Below are positions 4,626-25,031 of a stretch of 64,000 nucleotides of DNA, one piece after another. Below the pieces are notes generated by a model. It had not been told where the DNA came from, did not search any database, and worked only from the letters and a program-made list of their open reading frames with translations. The DNA is taken from NCBI GenBank assembly GCA_963849325.1, contig CAWKHF010000010.1, positions 160,001 through 224,000 on the forward strand, written 5' to 3'. This DNA comes from an uncultured Planctomycetota bacterium. GTDB lineage: Bacteria; Planctomycetota; Planctomycetia; Gemmatales; Gemmataceae. Position numbers and translations under genes: made by a program. Within the stretch, counting starts at the first letter, position 1. The number at the start of each line of letters is the position of its first letter.

Positions 4626-5915
4626 ATGTGGTGCTCCTACGCTTGCGATTCGGCGGACCATCTGCTTTCCCGTCGGCATTTCCTCGCCAGCATGGCGACG
4701 GGGGCGCTCGAGGCGCTGTCGCTGGGTTCGTTCGTCCGGCCGGCGTTCGCCCGTGAACTGGACAGGCAACAGAAGCGTGTTCTCATGATCTGGCTTCACG
4801 GCGGGGCGAGTCAGCTCGAAACATGGGACCCCAAGCCCGGCACGAGCACTGGCGGGCCGTTCCAGGCCATCCCGACGTCGGTGCCCGGCATCCACATTTG
4901 CGAGCTGCTGCCGTACACCGCGAAGCAGATGCACCATCTCGCCCTCATTCGCGGTCTCAACACCGCCGAGGACGATCACGGCAAGGGCGCTTACATCATG
5001 CACACTGGCCGGCGGCAGGAGCCGGCGATGAAGTGGCCGCACCTCGGCTCGGTGTGCGCCAAGCTGCTCGGCGACGGCGACAATCCGCTACCCGGCTACA
5101 TCCACATCACGCCGCGCGGCAACGGCGGCGTCAACAGCGAGGACGCCGCCTTCCTCGGCCCGCGCTACGCCTCCGTGTCCCTGAGCGATGGCCACGCTCC
5201 GGCCAACCTCGACCGCCCGCCGGCGCTCAGTGAAATCGCCGACCGTCAGCGGCACCAGTTCCGCATGAACGCCGACGAGCGTTTCCGCCGCTCGCGCCGC
5301 ACGGCCCAGACCGAGGCGTACACCCACTCTTACGATCAGGCCGCCCAGCTCATGCGTCGGCGCGATCTTTTCGACATCGCCAAGGAGCCGCCGGCCGTGG
5401 TTGATCGCTACGGCCGGCACGACTTCGGACGGCACTGCCTGATGGCCCGCCGTCTGCTCGAAGGCGGCGCCACCTTCGTCAAGGTGGCCCACTCCAACTA
5501 CGACACGCACCACGAAAACTTCGACTTCCACATCGAGCAGCTCGGCGAGTTCGATCGACCGTTCGCCACGCTGCTCGACGACCTGCGCGAGCGTGGTCTG
5601 CTGTCCAGTACGCTGGTCGTCGTCCTGTCGGAGTTCGGCCGGACGCCGCGGATCAATCGCAATTACGGCCGCGATCACTGGTCGCGCGCCTGGTCAATCG
5701 CCCTGGCCGGCTGCGGCATCAAGGGCGGCTCCGTCAGCGGCAAGACCAACGCCGAGGGCACCGCCGTCACCGATCGACAGGTCCACGGCGGCCACCTGTT
5801 CCATACCTACCTCCGTGCTCTCGGCTTCGACTCGAAGAAGAACTTCTACGTCGAGCAGCGGCCCATCGCCATCGCCGATCCGAAGGCCGCCCCCGTCACG
5901 GAGGTGCTGGCATGA
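4626..5915 (+). CDS. DUF1501 domain protein
   Basis: Tat-like SRRHFL; WLHGGASQLETWDPKP, CLMARRLLEGG, YDTH, SEFGRTPRIN, GRDHW. Confidence 0.9.
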   Translation: MWCSYACDSADHLLSRRHFLASMATGALEALSLGSFVRPAFARELDRQQKRVLMIWLHGGASQLETWDPKPGTSTGGPFQAIPTSVPGIHICELLPYTAKQMHHLALIRGLNTAEDDHGKGAYIMHTGRRQEPAMKWPHLGSVCAKLLGDGDNPLPGYIHITPRGNGGVNSEDAAFLGPRYASVSLSDGHAPANLDRPPALSEIADRQRHQFRMNADERFRRSRRTAQTEAYTHSYDQAAQLMRRRDLFDIAKEPPAVVDRYGRHDFGRHCLMARRLLEGGATFVKVAHSNYDTHHENFDFHIEQLGEFDRPFATLLDDLRERGLLSSTLVVVLSEFGRTPRINRNYGRDHWSRAWSIALAGCGIKGGSVSGKTNAEGTAVTDRQVHGGHLFHTYLRALGFDSKKNFYVEQRPIAIADPKAAPVTEVLA

Positions 5916-6929
5916 CTCCCGCCCCGGCCGCGAAGATCGACCCAACCAAGACGCATCCAATCCAGGAGCACAAGCACACCAGTCCGCTGCTGGGCTGCAG
6001 GCTCGCCCCGTCCGGGCGATTCGTCTTCGCGGGCGCCCAGGACAACGCCGTGATTCGCTGGCACCTCGACGGCGGCAAGAAGACGCTGCTGACGGGCCAC
6101 AAGAGCTGGGTGCGTACACTGGCCTTCGCGGCGAAGGAGAAGCTCCTGTTCTCCGGCGACTACGCTGGCCGCGTACACGTTTGGCCGGTGGATAGCGAGC
6201 AGCCGACGGTGCTGCGCACCATCGAAGCGCACCGCGGTTGGGTCCGCGCCCTGGCCGTCAGTCCCGACGGCCAGACGCTCGCCTCATGCGGCAACGATCA
6301 CCTCGTCAAACTCTGGTCGGTCCCCGACGGCAAGCTCGTCCGCGAGCTGGCGGGCCACGCCTGCCACGTTTACAACACCGCCTTCCACCCCGACGGCAAA
6401 CTCCTGGTCTCCGCCGACCTCAAGGGCGTCGTCAAGGTGTGGGGCTTGGCGAAAGGCGAGGTCGACGCGGGAGCTGGACGCGAAGATCCTCTACAAATAC
6501 GATCCGTCTTTCCTGGCGGACATCGGCGGCGTGCGCGGTATGGCGTTCAACTCGGATGGCTCGCTGCTGGCTTGCTCCGGCATCACGGACGTGAGCAACG
6601 CCTTCGCCGGCGTCGGCAAGCCGCTCGTCGTACTGTTCGACTGGGCGACGGGCAAGACGAAGCAGTTGTTGCGTCCGAAGGCGAACTTCCAGGGCACCGC
6701 CTGGGGTGTGATCGTTCATCCGGCCGGCTTCGTCGCCGGCGTCGGCGGCGGCAACGGCGGCGCCCTGTGGTTCTGGAAGCCCGACAGTGCTCAGGACTTC
6801 TTCGCCCTGGCCCTTCCCAACAACGCGCGCGACCTCGACCTGCACCCCGATGGCCGGCGCCTGGCCGTGGCCTTCTTCGATGGTGCTGTCCGTATCTATG
6901 GCATGGAAGCGAACGCCGCTGCCAAGTAA
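5912..6929 (+). CDS. WD40-repeat protein (frameshift near 6465)
   Basis: GHKSWVRTLAF, AHRGWVRALAVSPDG...VKLW, GHACHVYNTAFHPDG; continues in ORF 6531-6929; start overlaps the DUF1501 stop. Confidence 0.85.
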
Positions 6930-7147
6930 GGGTCGGTTGCCCAAGCCGTTTGCGGTTTGGCGAGGCTGCGGAAACGCTAAGTAATGAAAAAATGATGATA
7001 ATGAAAAATGGATCTTGAAGTCTTCATTCTCCCTTGTTACCATCGCCTTTTCTTGGGAAAGAGGATAATGGTGCAGTTACTCCTGAGCACAATTGCCATG
7101 GAGTGCACCTATGTCCCGTCCAATCACCGACAACAATTCTGAAAACT

Positions 7148-7407
7148 CATGCTGCCACTGCGCCATGCGCCATGCGCCACTTCGCCATGCGCCATGCGCA
7201 TGCCACTGCGCCATGCGCCATGCGCCATGCGCCATGCGCCATGCGCCATGCGCCATGCGCCATCGCGCCATGCGCCAGTGCGCCATGCGCCATGTCCTGC
7301 CATGCGCCATGCGCCATGCGCCATGGCGCCACTGCGCCATGCGCCATGCGCCATGCGCCATGCGCCACTCGCGCCATGCGCCATGCGCCATGCGCCATGC
7401 GCCATGC
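7148..7407. repeat. Tandem heptamer array (GCGCCAT)n, ~36 imperfect units
   Basis: Directly visible; gives MRHAPCA/MAHGAWR in all frames. Confidence 0.95.
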
Positions 7408-7495
7408 AGTGGGGTTACGCCCTTTCCCGTCTGCCTTAACCGTAAAGTTCCCCGTCGATTCCCTCGCCCCAGGATGTCTCAGAAGAGGAGATGCC

Positions 7496-7825
7496 ATGCG
7501 TAGACAGCTCGCCGCGATGTTGCGCTGCTTGGCCCTGTTGCTGGACCCGGCGTCTGGCGGAGTCCAGTTCGCCACGCAAGGAAACACGGTCCCGTCTGGA
7601 GGACCGGGGCGCGGGTCGTACCTATGGTATGGTCCGGACGATCCCAGTTCGACCGGGCTGTGGAGTGACCCGTTGATGTGGTCGCCCAAAGACGGGTCCG
7701 GTCCCCAACCCTGCGCCTTGGTGACGTTGGGTTCCTCGTTGGAAGTGATGAAATCGGCGACCGACGAGAGCACGGTGGACAAAGCCGAGGAGGCGAGGGA
7801 CGAAGGGCCGAAGCCGCAGGCGTAG
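7496..7825 (+). CDS. Hypothetical protein (109 aa)
   Basis: GAGGAG just upstream of the ATG; no recognisable motif. Confidence 0.3.
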   Translation: MRRQLAAMLRCLALLLDPASGGVQFATQGNTVPSGGPGRGSYLWYGPDDPSSTGLWSDPLMWSPKDGSGPQPCALVTLGSSLEVMKSATDESTVDKAEEARDEGPKPQA

Positions 7826-7871
7826 GTATCGCACCGAGGTTTGCTGACGATCATTCGAGGGAGGAAGCATC

Positions 7872-9297
7872 ATGTTGTCCATTCGGGTTGTTGGCCTGCG
7901 CACCTGTGCGGGCTCGCTATGCGGCGCGATGATGCTGGTGTGCGCCGCGCCGGCGTGGGCCGATCCCAAGCCGCTGACCAAGGAGGAACAGGCCAAGGTC
8001 GATCGGGCCATTGATCGCGCCGTTGCGCTCTTGAAACGTGCCGCAGACAAAACAAGGAGACTGGCCCCGATACTGGCCAACCCAGCATCTCGTCGGTCAA
8101 TGCGCTCTGCCGGCTTACGCGCTGTTGGAAGCTGGCGTACCGGCCGACGATCCGGTCATCCAGAAGGCCGCTGACTTTCTCCGCGCGCTGGTCCTCGCCA
8201 ACGATCGGACCTACGAAGTCTCGCTGGCCCTTCTCTTCTTTGATCGTCTCGGCGATGCCAAGGACAAGCCGCTGATCCGGACTCTGGCCTTGCGGTTGAT
8301 CGCCGGGCAGCATGTGACGGGGGGATGGAATTACGGCTGCATCCGCATGGGAAAGGAGAGAGAGGACGTTCTGTTCAAGGCATTGGTGGAGTTGAACAAG
8401 CGGCAGGAAGCGGGGGGCAAATTGACGATCAAATTCTTGAAGGATCTCCATCTTCCGACCTCGGTACGCGCTCTGGCTGTGTTCCGCGATCCGAGTCAGT
8501 TGCCTTGGCAGGATCCGCCGGATTCCGAGGTCAATATGCGTGTCGTTCCCATCGTGGGCACGACGGACAACTCGAATACGCAGTTCGCCATGCTGGGGTT
8601 GTGGGCGGCCCAGCGGCATGATGTGCCGGTCGGCCCCACGTTCCGCCTGATGGTCGAACGCTTCGAGAGAACGCAAAAGCCCAATGGCTGGTGGATGTAT
8701 CTTCTCGATCGGAATCGTGGGAAGCCAGATAACCATCATCCTTCAATGATCTGTGTTGGCTTGCTTGGTTTGGCTATCGGCCGTGGGCTGAAGTCCACGA
8801 CGCCTGGAGCGTTGCGGTCGGACAAGGTAGACCTCCCGGTTATTGCAGGTCTTGCGGCTCTCAGTCAAGATATTGGTGTCGCGGCCGCCGGTTTGGGCGA
8901 TATCGCATGTCGAGGCCCGTATTATCTGTGGTCGGTTGAGCGTGTGGCGATGCTCTACAATCTACCGACCATCGGTGATAAGGACTGGTATCGTTGGGGA
9001 GCGGGGATCCTCGTTACCAGTCAGAGGCCAAGCGGAGAGTGGAGGGCTTTCTCGGTTAGCATCAACGGCCTACCCACGGTTAACCACGGTCCCATCGTGA
9101 ATACGTCTTTTGCCTTGTTGTTTCTCAAACGCTCGCATCCCATGAAGGAATTGACGCCAAAGTTACTCTTCACCGCTAAGGAACTGAATCAGGGGGTCGC
9201 TCGATTGCTAGTGGATAAGAAACTCGCAGGACAGACAGGAGCAATTTCGAGGGAAAGCAAGACCCTTGAAAGTCCAAGCAAGGTCCGTGATCCCTGA
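7872..9297 (+). CDS. Secreted prenyltransferase/squalene-oxidase-repeat-like (alpha-alpha toroid) protein (frameshift near 8040)
   Basis: Signal peptide ending AWA; AIDRAVALLK, Q..GGWNY, DNSNTQFAMLGLWAA, YYLWSVERVA, Q.PSGEW, TSFALLFL. Confidence 0.65.
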
Positions 9298-9470
9298 ACG
9301 ATCCAATCGCTCAGGTTAATGGATAGTCCATTCATTACTCCGCGTTCGACGCGAAGCCGAAGATACTCTGCGCGTTGTCGATGCCGATGCCGAGCGATCA
9401 GGCGGATGGCGGAGACCATGCAAACTCTGGAGAGTTGGTGCATCGCTTCTATTCTTAAAGGAGGTCTTCT

Positions 9471-11139
9471 ATGTGGTCCATGCTCACACGTTTGCGCGAG
9501 AAGTTTTTGCCGAGCATCCCGCCAAGGACTGTTCGCCGTGCATCCTGGTACTTCCGCCCCCATTTGGAAGCTCTGGAAGACCGTCTGGTGCCCGATGCCG
9601 TCACCTTCACGGGCGGTGGTAACGGCACCAGTTGGAACGATCCCGATAACTGGGTCGATCTCAATAACGGTGCAAATGTTGTGCCCGGAGCGTCGGACGA
9701 TGCGTCCATCCTCATTGCCGCTACCGTCGTTATCTCTGGGGCGGCCGCTAACGTCAACAGCCTGGTCACCCTTCCCGGCAGCGTCCTCACGGTCACGGCC
9801 GGCAATCAACTGACGATCAACAACAACGTGCCGGGCACCACCTCCAGTCCGTTGGCGGGATCGGTCATCGATCTGGGCCGCATCGTCGCCAACACCAGCG
9901 ACCCCCTCAACGGCACCGGCGTCGTCTTCGGCGGCGGCGCCGTCATCGGACCCGGAGACCTCAACGGCAACCTCGACGCCGGACCCAACTCCTCCATCAC
10001 CTTTGCGCCCACCAACACCGGCGAATTCGTCGCCGGTGCCACCTTTGGTCTCGGCACCGGCAACATCATCATCGCCGGTCCCGTCCAGGTGGACGGCACC
10101 CTCGATGACAACACCGCCACCCTGAACGTCGTCACCGGCGGCACCCTCATGTCGGCCCCCGGCTCCACGGCAGGCGCGGTCAACGAGAATGCCACCTGCA
10201 ACTGGACGGGCGGCTTCATCGCCCTGGCCGGCGGCTTCAACGTCGGTTCGTCGGGCAGTCTTACCGCCAGCGGCCCCGACACGAAGTATCTCGCGGGCCC
10301 TCTGAGCAACCAGAGCGCTTTCACCAGCCTGGGCGGGGCCGGACCCTTGTTTCTGGCCAGTTCTACCGCGTCCATCAGCAACGTCGTGGGCCACATGACC
10401 CTGTCGCTACCCCTGATCGCTGGCGTCGTTGGCAGCGGCGGCATCAGCAACTCTCCTCTGGGCACCCTTGAGGCGGCCCCGCCGGACGGTGCGCCGAATC
10501 ATCCTCTCCCCGTTCACCAACAACGGCAATCTGACAGTGGACGGCGGCGTCAATCTGACGCTGGTGGGCGGCACCGACCCAAGCGGCGCTTCGACGGTGG
10601 CCCTGGATGGCGTGATGCAGTTGATGGGCAACCTGACTCTGCAAGGTCCGATCGATTCGCCGACGGGGTTCGTGGAGGACGCCGCCCCCGGCTTCATCGT
10701 GGTCGGCGACCTCCATGCCGGTAACCCCAGCGTGCTGACGGTGGGCGCCGGTGCCGTCGCCAGCGTCAACGGCAACCTGGAGGTGACCTACCTCGGCACG
10801 CTGACGGGAGGAGGCGAGGTCATCAATGGCGGCCGGCTGCAATTGGACGCGGTCAGCAGCACGGCGGGTCTGGGTTCGTACCAGCAGCTGTCCGAGGGCA
10901 CGCTGGCCGTGGATGAACTGCCGGAGGAGTTTCCCACGGTGCTGGCCGTCACCGGCACGGCGCAATTGTCGGGCAACCTCATCCTGCTGAATTACACGCC
11001 GGTGGTGGGAGATGCCTTCACGGTGGTGACGGCGGGAGCTGTCAGCGGTCACTTCGATACGATCCCCGATGGTATGGAAGAGACCGATGGCCCCACCTCC
11101 GTGACAGTCACGCAAGTCAACCCGCCAGCCGGCCAGTGA
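9471..11139 (+). CDS. LEPR-XLL (planctomycete extracellular) Gly/Thr/Asn-rich surface protein (frameshift near 10495)
   Basis: RPHLEALEDRLVP motif; WNDPDNW; beta-helix-like GTLTV repeats; C-terminal part in ORF 10429-11139. Confidence 0.75.
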
Positions 11140-11303
11140 ATCGTTGACCGCGCGGCGTGCGATGTCTGCCCAAGTCGCTTGCGACTTCGTACAGCGGCGC
11201 ATAGAAAAGGTACTTAGAAATTCGGCCGTGAGGAATTTCGATACCTCTTTTACGCTCCGCTGTATCAGGTCGCAAGCGGGGAGGAGATGCGCGAGGATAC
11301 ACC

Positions 11304-12812
11304 ATGCGTCCCCTGGGGATGGCCATTGTCCTTGCGGCGTTAACTGCCGGAGTCGCCGGCGCCGAAACGTCGCGAGCGCCGAACGTCCTGTGGATCTGCG
11401 CCGACGACCACGCCCCCTACGTCTGCGGCGCCTACGGCAACAAAACCGTGCGCACGCCGAACCTCGACCGCCTGGCCTCCGCGGGCGTGCGCTTCGATCG
11501 CGCCTACTGCAATTCGCCGGTATGCACGGCGTCGCGTCAGTCGTTCCTTTGCGGCCGTTATCCGCGCAGCCTCGGAGTAACGCGGCTGCAAACACCGCTG
11601 CCCGAGGGCGAGCCGACGCTGGCGACGATCTTGCACGCCGCTGGCTATGACACCGCCGCCATCGGCAAGATGCACTTCAACAGCAACCTCAAGCACGGCT
11701 TCGACCTCCGCATCGACCTGCCGCAGCACGCGCGCCAGCTGAAGGAGCATCCGCCCAAGCCGCTGCCGGCCGATGTCCCAGTCCAGCCGCCGTGGCGGCC
11801 GTTCCGCGATCCGGCGCGCGTCTGGCTCAACAGTGCGTGTCTGCCGTTCGCGGCACACGATGAGGACATGGCCGGCACCTTTCTCGCCCGGCAAGCGGCC
11901 GGTTATCTGCGCGAACGCCGCGACAAGCCGTTCTTCCTCATGGTCAGCTTCTACGAGCCGCACTCGCCCTTTCGCTTCCCGGTCGAGTATCGCGGCAAGT
12001 ATCGGCCCGAGCAGTTCCCGGCGCCGAAGGTCGGACCCGAGGACGATGCCCAAATCCCGGCCGTCTTCCGTGACTTGACCGAGCGCGAGAAGCAAGGCAT
12101 CCTCGCCGCCTATCACACGTCCACCGAGTTCATGGACAAGAACGTCGGCCTGGTCCTCGACGCCCTCGAACGGTCCGGTCGTGCCGCCGACACGCTGGTG
12201 ATTTACACGGGCGATCACGGTTACATGCTCGGTCAGCATGGCCGCTTCGAGAAACACTGCTGCTACGAGCCGGCGGTGCGCGCCCCGTTGCTGCTGCGCT
12301 GGCCGGGACACGTCCAGGCGGATCGAGGCACGAAGGCGCTCGTCGAATTCCTCGACATCGCGCCGACGGTGCTCGACGTTTGCCGGGTGCCGGTCGCGGA
12401 ATCGATGCAGGGCCGGAGCCTAGTGCCGCTGCTGCGCGGCGAGCGCCGGCGACACCGCGAGGAGGTCGTGGTGGAGTACGCGGAGAACGAAGAGGCGATG
12501 ATCCGTACCGAGCGTTGGAAGTTCATCTACTGCACCGGCAAGCGAGCGCGGCAGGACGGCTACGCCACCGGCCGGCCGCTGCCGGGCCGGACGATCCGCC
12601 TTTACGACGAGGACAACGATCCTGAGGAAATGACCAACCTCGTCGACAAGCCCGAGCACGCCCGGCTCGTCGCGGACTTCACGGTTCGGCTCGCCGAACA
12701 CCTGAAACGCACGGCTCGCCAGCCCGAATTGGTCCCCACCAAGGGCGACGTACATGCTGTACTGGAATTCTGTTTGCAACCGCGCGACGTGCGGCTGCCG
12801 GCGAAGAAGTAA
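11304..12812 (+). CDS. Sulfatase (choline-sulfatase-like)
   Basis: PNVLWICADD, CTASR (formylglycine Cys motif), IGKMH, YTGDHG, signal peptide. Confidence 0.9.
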   Translation: MRPLGMAIVLAALTAGVAGAETSRAPNVLWICADDHAPYVCGAYGNKTVRTPNLDRLASAGVRFDRAYCNSPVCTASRQSFLCGRYPRSLGVTRLQTPLPEGEPTLATILHAAGYDTAAIGKMHFNSNLKHGFDLRIDLPQHARQLKEHPPKPLPADVPVQPPWRPFRDPARVWLNSACLPFAAHDEDMAGTFLARQAAGYLRERRDKPFFLMVSFYEPHSPFRFPVEYRGKYRPEQFPAPKVGPEDDAQIPAVFRDLTEREKQGILAAYHTSTEFMDKNVGLVLDALERSGRAADTLVIYTGDHGYMLGQHGRFEKHCCYEPAVRAPLLLRWPGHVQADRGTKALVEFLDIAPTVLDVCRVPVAESMQGRSLVPLLRGERRRHREEVVVEYAENEEAMIRTERWKFIYCTGKRARQDGYATGRPLPGRTIRLYDEDNDPEEMTNLVDKPEHARLVADFTVRLAEHLKRTARQPELVPTKGDVHAVLEFCLQPRDVRLPAKK

Positions 12813-12827
12813 AGGATCGCCGCCCAC

Positions 12828-13742
12828 ATGCCGATCAATCGCTTCGATCAGGCCAGCCGCTACGCCGCCAAGCTGGATGCGCGGGGCTTCCTCGGATGGC
12901 TGCTGCACGAAGAGCCGGCCAGTCCGCGATTCCGAGGCTGGCTGGACACGCGCACGCTCCCCTTCCCCGGCGATCCCGAACGCATTTGTGATACGGTCGC
13001 CTGGCTGAGCGATCCCGATCCGGCGGTGGAATGGGCCATCCCGGTCGAGTTCTGCATCGAGCCGGACGGCAGCCTGTTCGGCCGGTTGCTCGTCTACCTG
13101 GGACAATTGTGGCTGGAGGTCCGCCCGACGGATGTGGGCGGCGAGCGGTTCGCGGTCGGCGCCATCGTGGTCAACCTGACAGGCCACGGCCAAACTTCGC
13201 GGACGATGCGCTTTCTTCAAACGGAAATCCACACCAGCCTCACCGTGGCGGAGCGCAATCTGGCCGACGAGGACGCAGAGGCGACTCTCGCTCATATCGC
13301 CACGGGGACGCTGCCTCGCTGCGTCCTGCCCTGGATCCCGCTGATGCAACGCGGCGGCGAAGACGGTATTATCCAGCAATGGAAGGATCTGGCCGGCCTG
13401 GAACCTGATAGCCGGCGGCGGTCGGACTTCGGCGGTCTGGCGCTGGTCTTCGCCGACGCGGCGCATCGCCTCCCCATCTGGAAGGAAGCCTTGAAGGAGT
13501 GGAACATGCGCGAATCGCAGCAGGTTTTGGAATGGATCAACATGGGCCGGGCCGAGGGCCGGGCCGAAGGAGAAGCGAATGCCTTGCTGCGCTTGCTGGC
13601 GAAACGCTTCCCGCCCGGAGCGCCGCTCGATCTGGCCGCCAAGATCCAGATGACCACCGAACTGGAGCATTTGCGCAAGTGGTTCGACCTGGCATGTACG
13701 GCCGATTCACTCGATGCCTTCCGCCAGGCGGCGGCGCTGTGA
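12828..13742 (+). CDS. Rpn-like putative nuclease/transposase with DUF4351-like C-terminus
   Basis: RICDTV...VEF acidic motif, LPWIPLM, C-terminal GRAEGRAEG..LLRLLAKRF. Confidence 0.6.
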   Translation: MPINRFDQASRYAAKLDARGFLGWLLHEEPASPRFRGWLDTRTLPFPGDPERICDTVAWLSDPDPAVEWAIPVEFCIEPDGSLFGRLLVYLGQLWLEVRPTDVGGERFAVGAIVVNLTGHGQTSRTMRFLQTEIHTSLTVAERNLADEDAEATLAHIATGTLPRCVLPWIPLMQRGGEDGIIQQWKDLAGLEPDSRRRSDFGGLALVFADAAHRLPIWKEALKEWNMRESQQVLEWINMGRAEGRAEGEANALLRLLAKRFPPGAPLDLAAKIQMTTELEHLRKWFDLACTADSLDAFRQAAAL

Positions 13743-14811: not shown

Positions 14812-16201
<1,390 letters not shown>

Positions 16202-16385: not shown

Positions 16386-16498
16386 GCGCGTTCGCTTGTG
16401 GTTCCGGTTAAGGCATTCCGCCATGCACCCTTTATCGTGCAACGCGGGGAGATTCAGGGCGACGAGCGGCGGACGGTCGCATGCAAGCTCAACGGTAG

Positions 16499-16527
16499 TT
16501 GCCTTGCGTACTGAACACCAGTACAAT
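16499..16527 (+). promoter_or_regulatory. Sigma70-like promoter of the GHKL ATPase gene with internal palindrome
   Basis: TTGCCT-N17-TACAAT; GTACTG-N5-CAGTAC at 16508-16524. Confidence 0.65.
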
Positions 16528-16597
16528 TTCGTTTATCAGTGCGGGATTAGCAAGAGCGGAAACCCGAATGTTTCCACCAACAAATGAGGAGCATTTC

Positions 16598-19048
16598 ATG
16601 CCGTTCGACAATGCCGAGAGTTTGTTACGGGCATTGTTGTCGTCTATCAAGAGTAGCGACATCCGTAAAATACTGGAGGAAATCGGGGACTACGGCAGCG
16701 CAGAGTTAGACCAGCCGTTCGGCCCCTTCCAGTTTTGCTGGCACGCCTTCGGCAACAACCCCTCAAACATCTCCTCCATCGGTCTGGGCACGAAGCCCGG
16801 CCGTAGCCTGACCGAACGCTACACCAACGGGACCGACAGCATCTTTGAGGACCGTGCCCCAGCCGGCGTGCCACTCCCGCGATCCGCTCGGGAGGCCGCT
16901 CAGCAATGGTTCGGTCGGCCTGTGAGCGGCCCCGAGGACGGGCTGTTTAACTGGAACTACAGCGAGCACGACTACGACCGGCGCATCTCGGTGATACTCT
17001 TGAATAGTGGTGACGAAACCGCGCCGACGGTAGACGTGTTGGACGATGGCATCGGCATCCAGCCCGACATGTTTTCCTCTACCATCCTCAGCCTACAATC
17101 GGGTAACAAGATTACCAAGTGGTACTTGATCGGAGCCTTCGGGCAGGGCGGTGCCTCCACGCTAGCGTTCGCGGACTACACGGTCATTGTGTCCCGCCAC
17201 CGGGACAACCCCAGCATCGTCGGCTTTACAATTATCCGGGTGCTGAAGTTAAACGAGCAGTACAAGGAAGACTGCTACGCCTACCTCTGCCTCAAAAGTT
17301 CCTCGGGCACCATCAGCGTCCCGTCGTGCCAGCTGGGCAATGAGACCCTCGTGATCTATGAACAGCATACTGGAGCCCGGATCCCCACACTCAAGAAAGG
17401 CACGCTGGTGCGCCACATTGGCTACCAGCTCCCGAAGCTGAGCGGCACCCTGGCCCCCAGCCCAGGCAACCTCTACCACTACCTGCACTGCTCTGCCTTC
17501 GACCCGTTGCTGCCTTTTCGGCTGATCGACTTGCGGCGCGACGAGGCGGACAACGAGATTGTGACCGGCAGTCGCAACCGCCTCATGAAGCTGGTTCCCT
17601 GGAACTCAGAGACCAGTCCGAAGACGACCGGATCCTTCCTGCGTTACCACCGTGAGATGGAATACTTCGCCCCGCACGGCACCCAAGACCCGTGCATCGG
17701 CATCGAGTTTTGGGTTGTATTCAACTATCGCAAGGGGCGAGGCGAGCAGAAGAACCTGCCCACATTGCGACCGCACTCCAATGAGTTGTTCGTCATGACC
17801 GGGCACCCCGTGGTCGGTACCCTGAACGGGCAGAATCAGGGGGAGCTGACGGCTCAGCTGCTCCGCGACTTGAGCCTCGGTATGGTAGCGCGGCACATCG
17901 TGATCCATATCGATGCCTCGAAGGCCGACAGCCGGGTCCGGCGGGAGCTGTTCGCCACGAACCGGGAAGGTTTCAAGGACGGGGCCGTCCTGACCAGTCT
18001 GATTAACATGCTCGAAAAGATGCTCAGTGAAGATGATACCCTCAAGGAGATCGAGCGCGAGTTGACGGAAAAGTTAGCGAAAAGGGAATCACAGGCCACA
18101 AGCGAGGATGTCAAGCGCCAGGTCGTTAAGCTTCTACAGGAGGCCGGCTTGAAGCTCCAATCCGAAGGACCAACCCTGGTGCCGGGGGAGGGGCAGGAAA
18201 AGATGCCGGTCAAGAAGCACCGCCCAGGCAGGCCGGTCAAGCCGCAGCCCCTGCCGACCCTGCCCTTCCCCCAGGTCACCAAGTTCACCATCGTCACCCC
18301 CAAGCCGAAGATGAGTGTCCACATCAATGACAGCGAGGTGGTGCTCGTTGAGACGGACGCCGACTCCGAGTTCGACCGCCAGGCGCGGGTTGCCATCCGC
18401 TCCGAACCCGACTGCCTGGAGTTGGCCGGGAAGTCGCCACTCGGCGGCGGCCGTATCCGCTGGCGACTCCGACCACGACAGACGGCCAAGGCGGGGGACG
18501 TTGGCCGCATCATCGTGACGCTCACCAAGCCGGATGGCTCCCAGCTCAGCGACACGACGGACTTCGAGGTCTTGGCCGCCTTGGAGCAGTCGGTAAAAAA
18601 GGCCAAGGGCGTCGTCCCGCAGTTCGATATTATCCCCATCAATCCGGTCGATAACCCGGAACAGTGGGAGGCGGCGTGGCCGAACTTGGGGACTGATGCC
18701 TCGGCTGAAGAACTGGCCTCGGTGGCCTACAAGCCGGTCTCGGTCGGCGGCGGGATCGTCGTATACTACTCGACCATCTTTGGGCCGTTCCAGGAGCAAG
18801 TGGAGAGGCTCAAGAACGCGGCGGCGGCGCTGCCGGCCCTCTTTCGCACGAACTACGAAATCTGGATCGGCTACCACGCCATCTTACAGGAGAACAGCCG
18901 CATTGGCATGAAGGGGACGATCGAGGACGAAGCCCTGGAAACAATCCTTGAGGAGGACCGTATCCGCGTGGCCAAGATGCAGGTGAAGCAGGCCAAGTCC
19001 ACAGCCGAACTGATGTACCAGACCATGCGCGACCAGGCAGCTGAATGA
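16598..19048 (+). CDS. GHKL (MORC/MutL/TopoVIB-type) ATPase, 816 aa
   Basis: N-box LTERYTNGTDS, G1 DVLDDGIG, G2 IGAFGQGG, G3 KGTLV; S5-like region ending ELFATNREGF; coiled coil; beta-rich C-terminal half; GAGGAG RBS. Confidence 0.8.
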   Translation: MPFDNAESLLRALLSSIKSSDIRKILEEIGDYGSAELDQPFGPFQFCWHAFGNNPSNISSIGLGTKPGRSLTERYTNGTDSIFEDRAPAGVPLPRSAREAAQQWFGRPVSGPEDGLFNWNYSEHDYDRRISVILLNSGDETAPTVDVLDDGIGIQPDMFSSTILSLQSGNKITKWYLIGAFGQGGASTLAFADYTVIVSRHRDNPSIVGFTIIRVLKLNEQYKEDCYAYLCLKSSSGTISVPSCQLGNETLVIYEQHTGARIPTLKKGTLVRHIGYQLPKLSGTLAPSPGNLYHYLHCSAFDPLLPFRLIDLRRDEADNEIVTGSRNRLMKLVPWNSETSPKTTGSFLRYHREMEYFAPHGTQDPCIGIEFWVVFNYRKGRGEQKNLPTLRPHSNELFVMTGHPVVGTLNGQNQGELTAQLLRDLSLGMVARHIVIHIDASKADSRVRRELFATNREGFKDGAVLTSLINMLEKMLSEDDTLKEIERELTEKLAKRESQATSEDVKRQVVKLLQEAGLKLQSEGPTLVPGEGQEKMPVKKHRPGRPVKPQPLPTLPFPQVTKFTIVTPKPKMSVHINDSEVVLVETDADSEFDRQARVAIRSEPDCLELAGKSPLGGGRIRWRLRPRQTAKAGDVGRIIVTLTKPDGSQLSDTTDFEVLAALEQSVKKAKGVVPQFDIIPINPVDNPEQWEAAWPNLGTDASAEELASVAYKPVSVGGGIVVYYSTIFGPFQEQVERLKNAAAALPALFRTNYEIWIGYHAILQENSRIGMKGTIEDEALETILEEDRIRVAKMQVKQAKSTAELMYQTMRDQAAE

Positions 19049-19054
19049 CCTGTG

Positions 19055-20209
19055 TTAGCGTGCTACCCGATGCACAAGCAAGACCTCAGATGTATGCTTC
19101 GTCTCATCCCTCAGCCCTGTGTACCATTTCCTGTTGGGTACTGATCGCCAGAATTGGCTGGGTCGATGGCCTTCGCATTCATACTCCTCGAAACCTGCTT
19201 CACGCATGGCCTCACGGTACAGGGGCAAGTGCTCGTTCGGCTTGCCGAAGCCAACCAGCTGTACGACATAGGCGTCATCCCTGACGACCTTGCGTATCTC
19301 GGTGAAGGCCAGCCGCAACTTGCCGAAGTACAGTTCCTCGTGCTTCTGATTACGGCGGTCGCCGAAGGTGTAGAAGGCAGAGCCCTGGCCATCCTGGCAG
19401 TCCGCGATCCAGAAGGGGGCGGACGTTTCGCGACGGCCCAGAACTTGCCAGCGGTGATAGAGGACGTGCGTTCCAGGGTACGGCGGCGAGGTAACGACTA
19501 GCTTGGGCGGTGACTCGCAGAGCAGCTTCGATGGCAGTGTGTTGATCTCATCCGCTGATCCGTGAAAGGCTTCAATGGTGGTGGGCTTGCCGCCCAAAGC
19601 GGATACTCGCTCGGCCAAGGCCTTGAGTCCAGCGGTCATGGAGATGGCATGCTCGATGATCCGCTCTCGGAAATCCGCCGCCGTGGGCAGACGTTTCTTG
19701 CAGTCCACGGCCCACTGCACCGTCTTGAGCACGATACACCGGACGACGGGCTGCAATCGTTCCGGCAGATGATTGACACCATTAATCGCTTGCTCCGCCA
19801 CCTTCCTGAAGCGCCAAGGCAGGTTCTCTTGGTAGCCTAGCTCTTTCCATTCCCCATGACGCTCTACGGGCTTGTGGGGAGATAATTCCGGCGTAACATT
19901 GATGGCCCAATCAAGAATAGCGTCCAACTCGTCTTGGCAAAGAAGGATCGTCTTCACCTGAGCCAAGAACACGGCCAGGCGGCTGATGTCCACGCCTACG
20001 GCCTGCCGCCCGAGGGCAAGCGCCTCGACCAGGCTGGTTGCTCCTCCCGAGAAAGGATCCAAAATTGTATCGCCTGGTTTGGTGAAGCACTCGATAGCCG
20101 CGCGGGCGACGAGAGGGGAAAACCGAGCGGGGTAGCGGTAGAAATCGTGCGTCAGTCCAGAGACCACACCCGTAAAGTTGATCGCTTCAATAAGCCGCTC
20201 CAGCCGCAT
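19055..20209 (-). CDS. Amino-DNA methyltransferase (alpha motif order, likely N4-cytosine), 384 aa
   Basis: THDFYRYPARF (motif X), LDPFSGGATS (motif I), GVDIS, VTSPPY (motif IV); GGAGGAG RBS. Confidence 0.85.
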   Translation of the reverse strand: MRLERLIEAINFTGVVSGLTHDFYRYPARFSPLVARAAIECFTKPGDTILDPFSGGATSLVEALALGRQAVGVDISRLAVFLAQVKTILLCQDELDAILDWAINVTPELSPHKPVERHGEWKELGYQENLPWRFRKVAEQAINGVNHLPERLQPVVRCIVLKTVQWAVDCKKRLPTAADFRERIIEHAISMTAGLKALAERVSALGGKPTTIEAFHGSADEINTLPSKLLCESPPKLVVTSPPYPGTHVLYHRWQVLGRRETSAPFWIADCQDGQGSAFYTFGDRRNQKHEELYFGKLRLAFTEIRKVVRDDAYVVQLVGFGKPNEHLPLYREAMREAGFEEYECEGHRPSQFWRSVPNRKWYTGLRDETKHTSEVLLVHRVAR

Positions 20210-20248
20210 CTCGTCTCTCCTCCCGCAGGTCAATGAGAACGCTCGACC

Positions 20249-20518
20249 TCAAGCTTTTGTTGGCCTGCGCTCGTACCAGTCCATCCATGCCTTCGTCGTA
20301 ATGCCGGTTAACGCCTCGATTTTGGCGAATCGATCAACCTTTGGGCGTCTCTTCCCTGTTTCCCACGAACCGACCGCTGTGTGAGATACCCCGAGACGGC
20401 GGGCCAAAACCGAGCGGTTCCACCCTTCCGGCGGCTGATTGAGCCTCCACTGACGGAGCGGATTATCATCTTTCCAGGTCGTTAAAGGATCCTTCTCGCC
20501 CCTACGGTGCTTGGCCAT
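20249..20518 (-). CDS. XRE-family HTH regulator (controller-like)
   Basis: LRQWR...LARRLGVSHTAVGSWETGKRRP; directly upstream of and co-oriented with the MTase. Confidence 0.85.
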   Translation of the reverse strand: MAKHRRGEKDPLTTWKDDNPLRQWRLNQPPEGWNRSVLARRLGVSHTAVGSWETGKRRPKVDRFAKIEALTGITTKAWMDWYERRPTKA

Positions 20519-20549
20519 AACGCCCTCAGCGGGTGTTGCATTAATTGAA

Positions 20550-20589
20550 GCAATTGATACAGCCTAGTGCTCTTCCTAATCAATTGCAA
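20550..20589 (-). promoter_or_regulatory. Promoter/operator of the XRE-MTase unit
   Basis: Minus strand TTGCAA-N17-TAGGCT (20589-20561); inverted repeat GCAATTGAT-N20-ATCAATTGC (20550-20587). Confidence 0.55.
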
Positions 20590-20958
20590 GAGATTCGTTG
20601 ATTTTTTTCGGGATTTGCTGTTTTGATGGGAGATCGGCGAGCACTCTCTTGAGACGATCGAAGACAAGTATCCTTGCTTGTCCTACACCTTTTTACCTTG
20701 GCACACACGTTCTGCCTTTAGTACGAACCTTCCTAGCCCGTCCTACTACCTCGGGGGCCGCCGGCGATCCGTACGCCGGTCAGCCCCTGCCGCGCGATGC
20801 CGGCATCGGCTCGCGCACCTTCCTCAACGCCCAAACCGGCCGCTTCCTGTCCGATTTAGGGGGAAGACGCCCCCGTTTAGGGTTTTGGTCCGCCCGTTCC
20901 CGGAGCGAACGGAAAAAAGCCCTTCCGAGTCGGCTTGTCAAAAAATCTTCTTTTGTTC

Positions 20959-23444: not shown

Positions 23445-24870
23445 ATGGGCATGTTGTTCTGTTCGCGTGAGTTTCTGCTGTTCTTCGCCGTCGTCTTCGC
23501 TCTCTACTGGATGCTCCCGTGGCGGCGGGGCCGTGTGTGGCTACTGCTGACCGCCAGCTTCTTCTTTTACGCCAGCTGGAACAAGGGACTCGCCGTCCTC
23601 ATTGGCGCGTCCACGGTGCTCGATTACCTGCTCGCCCTGGGCATGGAACGTTCCGCCGTGAGCTGGCGGCGCAAGCTGCTGCTGGGTGTGAGCCTGACGG
23701 CGAACCTCGGCTTGCTGTGCTATTTCAAGTACGCCAACTTCTTTCTCGATTCGCTGGCGCAGGCGCTCGGCGCGGCCGGCGTGACGACGGAATTTCGCAC
23801 CCTGGAAGTGATCTTGCCGGTCGGCATCTCCTTTTACACCTTCGAGGCCATCAACTACACGGTGGACGTCTATCGCCGCCGCATCCGCGCCGAGCGCAGC
23901 CTCGGCGATTTCATGCTCTTCATCCTGTTCTTCCCGCACCTGGTAGCCGGCCCCATCGTCCGCGCCCGTGACTTTTTGCCGCAGGTGAAGCGGCCCAAGC
24001 GCTGGGACTGGGCGCGGCTGTATCTGGGCACGGGATACTTCCTCATGGGTCTGGTCAAAAAAATGGCCATCGCCGATCGCATGGCCGAGTACGCCGACCC
24101 CGTCTTCGCCGATCCGTCGGCGTACCGTTCGGGAGCGGTGCTGTTCGCGGTGCTCGCCTACGCGGTGCAGATCTACGGCGACTTCTCCGGCTACACGGAC
24201 ATGGCCATCGGCACCGCCCACATGCTCGGCTACAAACTGGCGCGCAACTTCCACATGCCGTACCTATCGGTTAACGTCGCCGACTTCTGGCGGCGCTGGC
24301 ACATTTCGCTGTCGAGTTGGCTGCGCGATTATCTCTTCATCCCGCTGGGCGGCAGCCGGGGGTCCGGCTGGCAGACGACCCGCAACCTGCTGATCACGAT
24401 GACGCTCGGCGGTCTGTGGCATGGAGCCAGTTGGACGTTCGTTTTCTGGGGCGTGCTGCACGGTCTGTTTCTGATTGTCCATCGTGTTTTCCGCGGCTTC
24501 AGCGAGCGTCGGCCGTGGCTGGATTGGGCGCTGGGGACGTTGCCCGGCACGCTGCTGCGCATGTTGCTGACGTTCCTGTGCGTGGCCGTCGGCTGGGTGT
24601 TCTTCCGCGCCGACGTTCGGCACCGCGCTGACCATCCTGCATCGGCTGGTCGTGCCGAGTCACGGCCTGGGATCGCCGCTGCCGCGCGTCGGTCTGATCG
24701 ACACGCTGCTCTTTATGTGGGTCTGCCATGCGGTAGCCTACTGGGTGCCGTGGAGAAAGTGGTGGCGCGTGCCGGCCCCGATCCAGGGCTTCGCCTACGC
24801 GGCGGCCGTCGTGCTGGCGCAGGTGCTCGCCCCGGACGCCGGCAAGGCGTTTATTTACTTTCAGTTCTGA
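23445..24870 (+). CDS. MBOAT O-acyltransferase (AlgI/DltB-like; frameshift near 24612)
   Basis: LPVGISFYTF, FFPHLVAGPI, DFSGYTDMAIG, FWRRWHISLS, GLWHGA, C-terminal FIYFQF. Confidence 0.9.
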
Positions 24871-24888
24871 GCATCGCCCGAGCCAAGC

Positions 24889-25031
24889 GGATAACAAGGT
24901 GACAAGGTGACAAGGTGACAAGGCGAGAAAATGATACGGTAATGAAACCTACAACATTCGCGCTCCGGACCACTTGGTTCCTGGCTCGGCTGTTCACCTT
25001 GTCACCTTGTCACCTTGTCACCTTGTCATCC
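24889..25031. repeat. Inverted tandem-octamer hairpin (GACAAGGT)n/(ACCTTGTC)n
   Basis: 38-bp arms 24889-24926 and 24994-25031 with 2 mismatches, 67-bp spacer. Confidence 0.9.

Follow-up and report, generated by a model that had tools for sequence, protein, structure and literature searches.

BREX is a methylation-based exclusion system without a known nuclease, in which the methyltransferase supplies both the self mark and the specificity and the effector side contains ATPases. It comprises 4 to 8 genes, including PglZ, BrxC, BrxL, and a gamma-type N6-adenine methylase, and blocks the replication of unmethylated DNA without obvious degradation. In restriction-modification (RM) systems of Type III, Mod carries the only recognition domain, and its gene precedes that of Res, an ATP-dependent superfamily 2 (SF2) helicase with a PD-(D/E)xK nuclease that acts on unmethylated sites. 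We present here a cassette encoding a GHKL-type ATPase, an amino-DNA methyltransferase, and an XRE-type helix-turn-helix (HTH) regulator, found in an uncultured Planctomycetota bacterium of the family Gemmataceae (GenBank assembly GCA_963849325.1, contig CAWKHF010000010.1). The window analyzed is a stretch of 64,000 nucleotides (contig positions 160,001 to 224,000, forward strand), and all positions below refer to it unless a locus is named. From sequence comparison, we tentatively read the cassette as a horizontally mobile two-gene module for methylation-based discrimination of self from non-self, accompanied by a lineage-specific XRE gene.

GHKL ATPases were predicted in RM neighborhoods by Iyer, Abhiman, and Aravind in 2008 (PMC2292703), who describe a minority of MORC and paraMORC neighborhoods with methylases or restriction enzymes yet no helicase. 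The Shedu type I-D protein VcSduA (PMC12137116) is a paraMORC3 with validated anti-phage activity for which the ATPase glutamate is essential. Tiamat (bioRxiv 10.64898/2026.09.30.754977) is a GHL ATPase-DNase with DUF3684 and usually a PD-(D/E)xK nuclease. MORC-1 of Caenorhabditis elegans entraps DNA (PMC8277788), which provides a precedent for a GHKL DNA clamp.

The ATPase-methyltransferase gene pair

The cassette consists of three intact open reading frames (ORFs), as the sequence-only reading of this DNA had stated: an ATPase gene on the forward strand and, on the reverse strand, a convergent methyltransferase gene with an SPPY motif and an XRE gene, which the methyltransferase gene follows.

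16598..19048, + strand: 816-amino-acid (aa) GHKL-type ATPase (ORF, weak HATPase_c_3 match, homologous clusters, GHKL motifs); conserved partner of the methyltransferase and presumed effector
19055..20209, − strand: 384-aa permuted amino-DNA methyltransferase, likely N4-cytosine (Pfam, PADLOC, and PDB sequence matches; alignment)
20249..20518, − strand: 89-aa XRE-type HTH regulator (HTH_3, E 8.1e-10), upstream of and co-oriented with the methyltransferase gene

The ATPase ORF spans 16499-19048 from a TTG; the 816-aa form begins at an ATG at 16598, with GAGGAG 8 nt upstream, and the homologues start at the same point. The methyltransferase ORF covers 19055-20233 on the reverse strand, and its likely start, an ATG at 20209 with GGGAGGAG upstream, gives 384 aa. 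The convergent stop codons are 6 bp apart (19049-19054), the spacing reported earlier.

Homologous loci were collected from one genome per species. The scan gave 34 loci (numbered from L001), comprising 26 near relatives (44-70% identity) and distant ones; the query was the near-family alignment A1, so the sample leans toward the near family. The near loci belong to six phyla: Planctomycetota, Verrucomicrobiota, Acidobacteriota, Pseudomonadota, Bacteroidota, and Chloroflexota. In 24 of these 26 loci, the ATPase gene is immediately adjacent to a gene of the same methyltransferase family, in two gene orders, and the association proposed from the window alone extends to related loci. The methyltransferase gene is upstream and co-directional in 14 loci and convergent, as in the window, in 9, and 1 locus is rearranged with both genes truncated. 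Co-directional gaps in 13 of the 14 loci are about 1-16 bp by ORF ends and up to about 65 bp by match ends (L004 and L010); the gap in L006 is about 100 bp. Convergent genes overlap or are separated by small gaps, except in L001 (Singulisphaera sp. PoT), where the gap is 663 bp, compared with 6 bp in the window. This L001 gap (L001:10446-11108) holds a 208-aa ORF without a Pfam match.

Two loci lack the arrangement: L005, whose ATPase breaks off at residue 432, and L021, considered below. Decayed ATPase copies occur where the methyltransferase is broken or absent (L004, L005, and L024). Pairwise identities of the two proteins across 21 pairs are correlated (Mantel r 0.69; 0 of 5000 permutations as high), a correlation to which shared host ancestry could add. 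The ATPase and the methyltransferase are co-inherited.

The surroundings of the pair were scanned with Pfam for 124 neighboring proteins (160 aa or longer, no farther than 5.5 kb away) at 23 near loci (L004, L005, and L024 were left out). No recurrent partner or nuclease gene was found among them, which goes against the objection considered earlier that homologous loci might always carry a separate nuclease; nuclease-family matches occur in 4 of the 23 loci and are all different (RNase_T, XhoI, Mrr_cat, and a TnpB-like RuvC). The same neighbors include no MORC or HNH protein, the companions described for paraMORC1, and no MutS- or MutH-type partner, and the cassette neighborhood contains no helicase. 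No PADLOC defense model fits the cassette, so the claim that it matches no named system also stands. Since no partner recurs, the pair appears to be an autonomous two-gene cassette. Mobile-element genes lie near it in 7 of the 23 loci, and in L003 (1386-5148) it is inserted between the lipid A genes lpxB and lpxI. This insertion shows the ATPase and methyltransferase genes traveling together into housekeeping surroundings.

The cassette sits in the part of the window that deviates most in composition, and it is compositionally foreign. GC content is 60.5% in the ATPase gene, 58.5% in the methyltransferase gene, and 57.0% in the XRE gene, compared with 64-68% in flanking genes. The tetranucleotide distance of positions 16401-20800 is 0.284 against a mean of 0.154 (standard deviation [SD], 0.035), about 3.7 SD above it and second among 150 sliding windows. 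The look of horizontal acquisition noted from the letters alone is therefore borne out by both GC content and tetranucleotide profile. Lower GC content was correctly claimed for all three genes, but the accompanying claim of more A/T-ending codons applies clearly only to the methyltransferase and XRE genes (GC content at third codon positions, 0.70 and 0.63); the ATPase value of 0.81 falls inside the flank range of 0.79-0.91.

Motifs and predicted structure of the ATPase

The only Pfam match of the ATPase is HATPase_c_3 (residues 141-214), at 20 bits against a cut-off of 25. Searches of PADLOC (E<=0.1), NCBIfam, and PHROGs gave zero matches, and phmmer and profile searches of the PDB returned nothing usable; the best matches, to Hsp86 (E 0.79) and influenza PB2 (E 0.2), were treated as chance. 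A word-indexed search found 361 homologous clusters, the best 120 of which have 52-76% identity and are nearly all about 800-840 aa long. Among representatives clustered at 50% identity, an exhaustive search turned up 1056 relatives at E<=1e-3, 183 of them at E<=1e-30; many are 740-820 aa long and align over almost their full length at about 30% identity. Every name given among the listed homologues is "hypothetical protein," and the ESM Atlas, queried with the whole ATPase, returned only "hypothetical" clusters. Leads from the same atlas for the C-terminal part (DUF6551, 0.90; AbiGii-like, 0.89) were weak and below reliability marks. A search for longer fused forms found none, which is weak evidence. 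The plasmid collection contains only four homologues, all distant (24-25% identity).

The four GHKL boxes noted earlier are confirmed and, as a whole, show little or no variation in relatives as distant as 22% identity. They comprise the N box (E73, N77, and D80), G1 (D149xGxG153), G2 (G179 to G185), and G3 (G268-T269), and they match the superfamily signatures ExxxNxxD, DxGxG, GxxGxG, and GT; the fold, which resembles Hsp90 and GyrB, agrees. Residues E73, N77, D80, D149, G151, G153, G179, G182, G184, and T269 are invariant in 32 sequences that reach down to 22% identity. The wide alignment has further invariant residues in the transducer part (G324, L329, G411, Q412, and R456) and in the C-terminal part (Y753 and H760). 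The label "MORC-like," in contrast, has to be given up: the MORC S5 motif GhXhhpXXRhl has 0 strict and 0 relaxed regular-expression matches in the ATPase, HATPase_c_3 lies below its cut-off, and the nearest folds are those of Hsp90 and GyrB rather than MORC or MutL.

AlphaFold models place the following domains in the ATPase. The predicted local distance difference test score (pLDDT) is 72 for the full-length model and 88 for the C-terminal 272 residues modeled alone.

16598..17497, + strand: N-terminal arm and GHKL (Bergerat) ATP-binding domain, residues 1-300 (N, G1, G2, and G3 boxes; Foldseek matches to Hsp90, GRP94, and GyrB N-domains)
17498..17977, + strand: transducer/middle domain, residues 301-460 (covered by the Hsp90 N+M and GyrB 43K alignments; invariant residues)
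17984..18142, + strand: long helices, likely a coiled coil, residues 463-515 (model helices 463-477, 480-499, and 503-515)
18284..18577, + strand: immunoglobulin (Ig)-like beta-sandwich, residues 563-660 (C-terminal model, pLDDT 88; Foldseek)
18623..19045, + strand: small beta/alpha unit and long helical hairpin, residues 676-816 (model; invariant Y753 and H760); possibly the dimerization end

All Foldseek matches listed for the full-length model (ranks 1-50) belong to the Hsp90 family or to GyrB. The top structures for the N-terminal approximately 500 residues are 7kw7_A (E 2.3e-8) and 4prx (E 6.3e-8), and the alignments to Hsp90 N+M and GyrB 43K span 415-493 columns. The S5-like region described in the sequence-only reading is thereby substantiated, and helices 463-515 fit its coiled coil. 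By fold, the ATPase has the second domain that completes the active site in the GHL subgroup, and Q412 and R456 are, from their conservation, candidates for the catalytic finger residue. The C-terminal part of about 240 aa, previously described as beta-rich and left unassigned, is beta-rich only in part: the Ig-like sandwich (563-660) is followed by the beta/alpha unit and the helical hairpin (676-816). The fold search suggested for this part yielded, among the matches listed (PDB ranks 1-49 and BFVD ranks 1-50), named matches that are Ig/FN3-type modules or proteins containing them. Conserved motifs in the Ig-like domain are ETDAD (585-589) and GGRxRWR.

The matches listed contain no nuclease fold, only GHKL plus transducer and Ig-like folds. 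Pattern searches of the ATPase found no PD-(D/E)xK, HKD, GIY-YIG, or MutL-type motif, and a loose H..N..H pattern matched only in the transducer, without conserved histidines. A MutL-like QHAxxE site at H760 was ruled out, as the spacing differs and the regular expression has no match. No nuclease or TIR Pfam domain matches the ATPase. The earlier statement that no PD-(D/E)xK, HNH, or phospholipase D motif is visible therefore survives tests of motif, hidden Markov model (HMM), and fold.

A nuclease could nonetheless be concealed in the 816-aa protein and cut or nick unmethylated DNA, which would make the pair an unusual Type II- or III-like RM system. Several conserved stretches that are poorly modeled or unassigned (281-335, ETDAD, and H760) could hide an active site; conserved polar residues in such stretches are H297, D302, D311, R313, R326-R328, E580, D587, D589, Y753, H760, and E785. 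Other GHKL families of conflict systems carry nucleases (VcSduA, PMC12137116; Tiamat, bioRxiv 10.64898/2026.09.30.754977). PADLOC REase_II models with a GHKL N terminus exist, though they match a neighboring paraMORC-kinase fusion and not the ATPase, and the RM-like gene arrangements and decayed copies would fit a cutting enzyme equally well. Set against these points are the negative motif, HMM, and fold results and the small number of invariant residues outside the ATPase core, which form no recognizable metal-binding set; D587 and D589 vary in the wide alignment. We regard a cryptic nuclease as unlikely, and a non-cutting clamp or exclusion effector as a possibility that we favor only tentatively.

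The methyltransferase, the XRE gene, and flanking DNA

The methyltransferase has a permuted motif order: an HxxYRYPARFSP...DPFxGGGT block is followed about 190 residues later by TSPPY. DPFSGGAT (motif I) and TSPPY (motif IV) are invariant in 21 sequences (alignment A4). The Pfam model N6_N4_Mtase, relative to which the order is permuted, matches at 8.1e-13 only in the N-terminal, motif I part, and the combination of FxGxG with (S/D/N)PP(Y/F) in this order identifies an amino-DNA methyltransferase. PADLOC gave MTase_II (5.4e-20) and otherwise generic MTase_II and weak mad2 matches. The SPPY motif marks N4-cytosine methyltransferases, and the best PDB sequence matches are enzymes of that kind (8s9m, 3.6e-7); the methyltransferase is likely N4-cytosine-specific. 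Residues 80-240, between the catalytic blocks, are the least conserved (0.21-0.53 per block, compared with 0.6-0.8 in the catalytic blocks), as expected of a target-recognition-like region, and the ATPase has no domain as variable. The methyltransferase probably sets specificity, since it is the sole component with a variable recognition-like region. Two distant matches to it were found in the plasmid collection.

Candidate regulatory sites lie on both sides of the cassette.

16499..16527, + strand: promoter-like site TTGCCT-17-TACAAT (consensus scan, 9/12 matches), about 70 bp 5′ of the ATPase start codon
20550..20587, no strand: perfect inverted repeat with 9-bp arms, GCAATTGAT / ATCAATTGC, and a 20-bp spacer (repeat search); candidate operator, 32-69 bp upstream of the XRE start

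The promoter scan is a pattern match only, with 3 sites seen in the region and 1.3 expected. The inverted repeat may serve as an operator; at the corresponding place in L001, the repeat is another one (CAGTTG..CAGTTG). The HTH_3 match confirms the XRE assignment, and the PADLOC Control_protein match is weak (E 0.0094). Membership of the XRE gene in a conserved system, which had been proposed, is not borne out: a homologue was found in 1 of the 26 near loci (L001, 59% identity, same position), and the gene precedes the methyltransferase and not the ATPase. A different small HTH gene precedes the methyltransferase in L017 and L022.

Searches for island ends found neither a tRNA gene nor flanking direct repeats. 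Both flanking genes examined seem to be damaged. In the Gfo/Idh/MocA ORF (14812-15945), approximately 52 positions are missing from the start of the Rossmann profile, and an ORF with a twin-arginine translocation (TAT) signal (16037-16201) lies upstream of its body in another frame (region 14812-16201). In the MBOAT gene (23445-24902), the C terminus is out of frame and continues at 24652-24870. These genes are either pseudogenes or the product of assembly indel errors.

Elsewhere in the window, positions 6400-11600 form a second compositional outlier (GC content, about 58-62%; tetranucleotide distance up to 0.26, third among 150). Between 7034 and 11139, seven ORFs (235-419 aa) lack a Pfam match, and a WD40 protein is encoded at 5912-7018. 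At 12828-13742, a sulfatase gene and a sugar-isomerase-like gene flank a 304-aa ORF for which Pfam gave no match at E<=0.001.

The wider family, proposed mechanism, and known systems

Distant relatives of the ATPase stand beside other DNA-modification genes. At 24-28% identity, loci from Bacillota and Mycoplasmatota (L027, L028, L031, L032, and L034; for example, L034:5158-11430) contain a five-gene array of an MTaX1-domain protein, a Dcm methylase, a protein termed F2, the ATPase, and a protein termed F5. The MTaX1-domain protein matches a PADLOC Type II restriction endonuclease (REase) model (8.5e-56). The array ATPase is about 747 aa long, F2 is a helical protein of 71-78 aa without a Pfam match, and F5 is 410-510 aa long. 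F5 follows the ATPase and overlaps its 3′ end in L027, L031, and L034, while the L028 and L032 sequences stop inside the ATPase; the L031 copy of F5 has a DpnI_C methyl-DNA-binding domain at its end. F5 was rejected as a split-off piece of the ATPase C terminus (hhalign probability, 0.4%).

F2 lies directly ahead of the transcription unit containing the ATPase in 14 of 38 loci from near and distant clades: L014, L016-L020, and L022 (near 6550-6790 or immediately before the ATPase) and L027, L028, and L030-L034. A role as controller or as small subunit is conceivable. An alternative reading is that the ATPase serves as a sensor or motor dependent on an unlinked host factor or effector, or as an abortive-infection toxin restrained by methylation, with the two genes forming an incomplete system. 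The genes that distant clades add would suit this explanation, as would F2 in seven near-family loci, all of Bacteroidota. Against it, the window and 19 of the 26 near loci lack F2, most near loci have no conserved third gene or recurring neighbor family, and F5 is unrelated to the ATPase. We consider an incomplete system very improbable and retain the two-gene reading.

A second kind of partner is found with phosphorothioation. In L007 (3819-7330), a divergent ATPase paralogue lies beside DndB, and 3 of the 4 plasmid homologues (L035-L037) adjoin genes of the Ssp/Dnd phosphorothioation type, encoding PAPS reductase, DUF4007, and a class-V aminotransferase. A HATPase_c_3+HEF_HK+HATPase_c fusion (paraMORC-histidine-kinase) is present in L035 and L036 as well, and L037 adds SIR2 and a GmrSD_N/NsnA-like protein; these additions, with F2 and F5, are the ones that favor an incomplete system. 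The fourth plasmid homologue, L038, has no phosphorothioation context. The distant plasmid trio was judged not to be SspFGH, since the paper on that system has Walker-A and FtsK-like proteins and not GHKL proteins. The L007 and plasmid contexts may represent an undescribed phosphorothioation-linked restriction module. A quick maximum-likelihood tree has three well-supported groups by partner (permuted methylase, Dcm cluster, and phosphorothioation/DndB), with phyla mixed inside the methylase-linked group. Because relatives lie beside Dcm and phosphorothioation genes, the ATPase scaffold seems to accompany DNA-modification modules generally, which suggests a general "modification reader/effector."

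For the cassette in the window, we propose the following mechanism. The permuted SPPY methyltransferase would mark the host's own sites, probably with the specificity that it sets itself, and a dimeric GHKL ATPase would act on DNA without the mark. ATP binding would close an N-terminal gate, as in Hsp90, GyrB, MutL, and MORC, and the ATPase would clamp or compact unmethylated DNA, so that replication or expression is blocked. It would probably be recruited by, or act with, the methyltransferase. The effector would be non-nucleolytic in the manner of BREX or MORC, with any DNA damage secondary, and the XRE protein and the inverted repeat might time the expression of the methyltransferase operon. 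Defense function, toxicity to unmethylated DNA, dimeric clamping, and a complex with the methylase are elements that we infer. Methyltransferase-first operons, HTH genes (window, L001, L017, and L022), and decayed ATPase copies are typical of RM systems.

Several observations weigh against this proposal. Other defense genes lie near only about 5 of the 23 near loci, where many neighbors are housekeeping genes, and a search of the phage collection with the ATPase gave no match. The methyltransferase family is at least 14 times larger than that of the ATPase (at least 4991 clusters, compared with 361). Its closest relatives, 11 clusters, are 79-87% identical, compared with 76% for the best ATPase match; the methyltransferases that share contigs with the closest ATPases are about 58-62% identical. 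From the family sizes and the close relatives that lack an equally close ATPase, the methyltransferase also lives without the ATPase, and the two genes in the window may have come together recently. The identity values hint that modules have been shuffled between methyltransferase and ATPase lineages. L021 has an intact ATPase with no methyltransferase within 885 bp upstream or about 6 kb downstream, which argues against obligatory ATPase toxicity unless a methyltransferase lies elsewhere in that genome. The XRE gene, unlike those of most controller proteins, precedes the methyltransferase and not the putative toxic ATPase.

Part of this evidence would suit a pair without a role in defense, such as an epigenetic or DNA repair module in which the ATPase is a MutL-like strand-discrimination or loading factor or a helper of methylase processivity. 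The housekeeping contexts and the methyltransferases without an ATPase agree with such a role, and the GHKL-plus-transducer architecture is common to MutL, GyrB, and Hsp90. The patchy spread over six phyla with a tree that mixes them, the foreign composition, and the mobile-element genes near the pair speak against it, as does the absence of MutS- and MutH-type partners among the scanned neighbors. Compact, selfish-looking pairs with decayed copies are, moreover, a pattern of RM systems and not of core repair genes. An epigenetic or repair module is therefore improbable in our judgment.

If the self/non-self reading is right, the pair would be the smallest methylation-based exclusion system with an ATP-gated clamp as effector in place of a nuclease. 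It would offer a tractable two-protein model for how GHKL/MORC-type ATPases read the modification state of DNA and for the means by which BREX and other nuclease-free systems halt foreign DNA, and it would bear on the descent of eukaryotic MORC silencing from such modules. The catalogue of defense systems would gain a widespread member, since the family is large (the 1056 representatives), is named only "hypothetical," and is invisible to current defense finders. A bolder version, which we find doubtful, would see here a minimal nuclease-free two-gene restriction system whose dimeric GHKL ATPase silences unmethylated DNA by topological clamping or compaction and does not cut it, the smallest known BREX-like device and a bacterial counterpart, possibly a forerunner, of the MORC silencing linked to methylation in eukaryotes, with three clades that read N4/N6, C5, and phosphorothioation marks.

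A description of such a methylase-ATPase pair was not found in full-text literature (supplements and subscription papers were outside the scope). The cassette has the methyltransferase-plus-ATPase logic of BREX in the form proposed here, with only two genes; of the PADLOC BREX models, only the generic MTase_II matched the methyltransferase, and none matched the ATPase. Like Type III RM, the pair has its only recognition-like region in the methylase, an ATP-dependent partner that would act on unmethylated sites, and, in the co-directional loci, a methylase-first order, but the partner is a GHKL protein without a helicase or nuclease. It differs from classical Type II RM in that no PADLOC REase model, nuclease motif, or nuclease fold was found for the ATPase.

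Among GHKL systems, the MORC and paraMORC families, as described in PMC2292703, have in common with the ATPase a GHKL plus S5/transducer core, a C-terminal extension of their own, a patchy mobile spread, and linkage to methylases. Most of their neighborhoods contain SF2 helicases and nucleases, whereas the ATPase-methyltransferase cassette has none. The features given there for paraMORC2 (ExxxH in S5), paraMORC3 (a RecB-like nuclease at the C terminus), paraMORC4 (TIR), and paraMORC5 (HxH in the C-terminal domain) are all absent from the window ATPase, ExxxH and HxH by pattern search. VcSduA (PMC12137116) has a similar N-terminal GHKL domain and clamp-like middle domain but is encoded by one gene, with a DUF4263 PD-(D/E)xK nuclease domain at the C terminus and no methylase; the window ATPase has no DUF4263 or Shedu match. 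Tiamat (bioRxiv 10.64898/2026.09.30.754977) is likewise an Hsp90-like ATPase used for defense, with swapped effector domains and some methyltransferase neighbors. In that survey, methyltransferases occur only together with helicases, whereas the window cassette has no helicase, and searches for DUF3684 and nuclease Pfam domains and of PADLOC at E<=0.1 found none in the window ATPase. The N-terminal modules of Hsp90, GyrB 43K, and MutL have no counterpart of the Ig-like domain and helical hairpin. The ATPase family is distinct from these systems in having no helicase, nuclease, DUF3684, or MORC motif and in combining an Ig-like C terminus with strict two-gene pairing.

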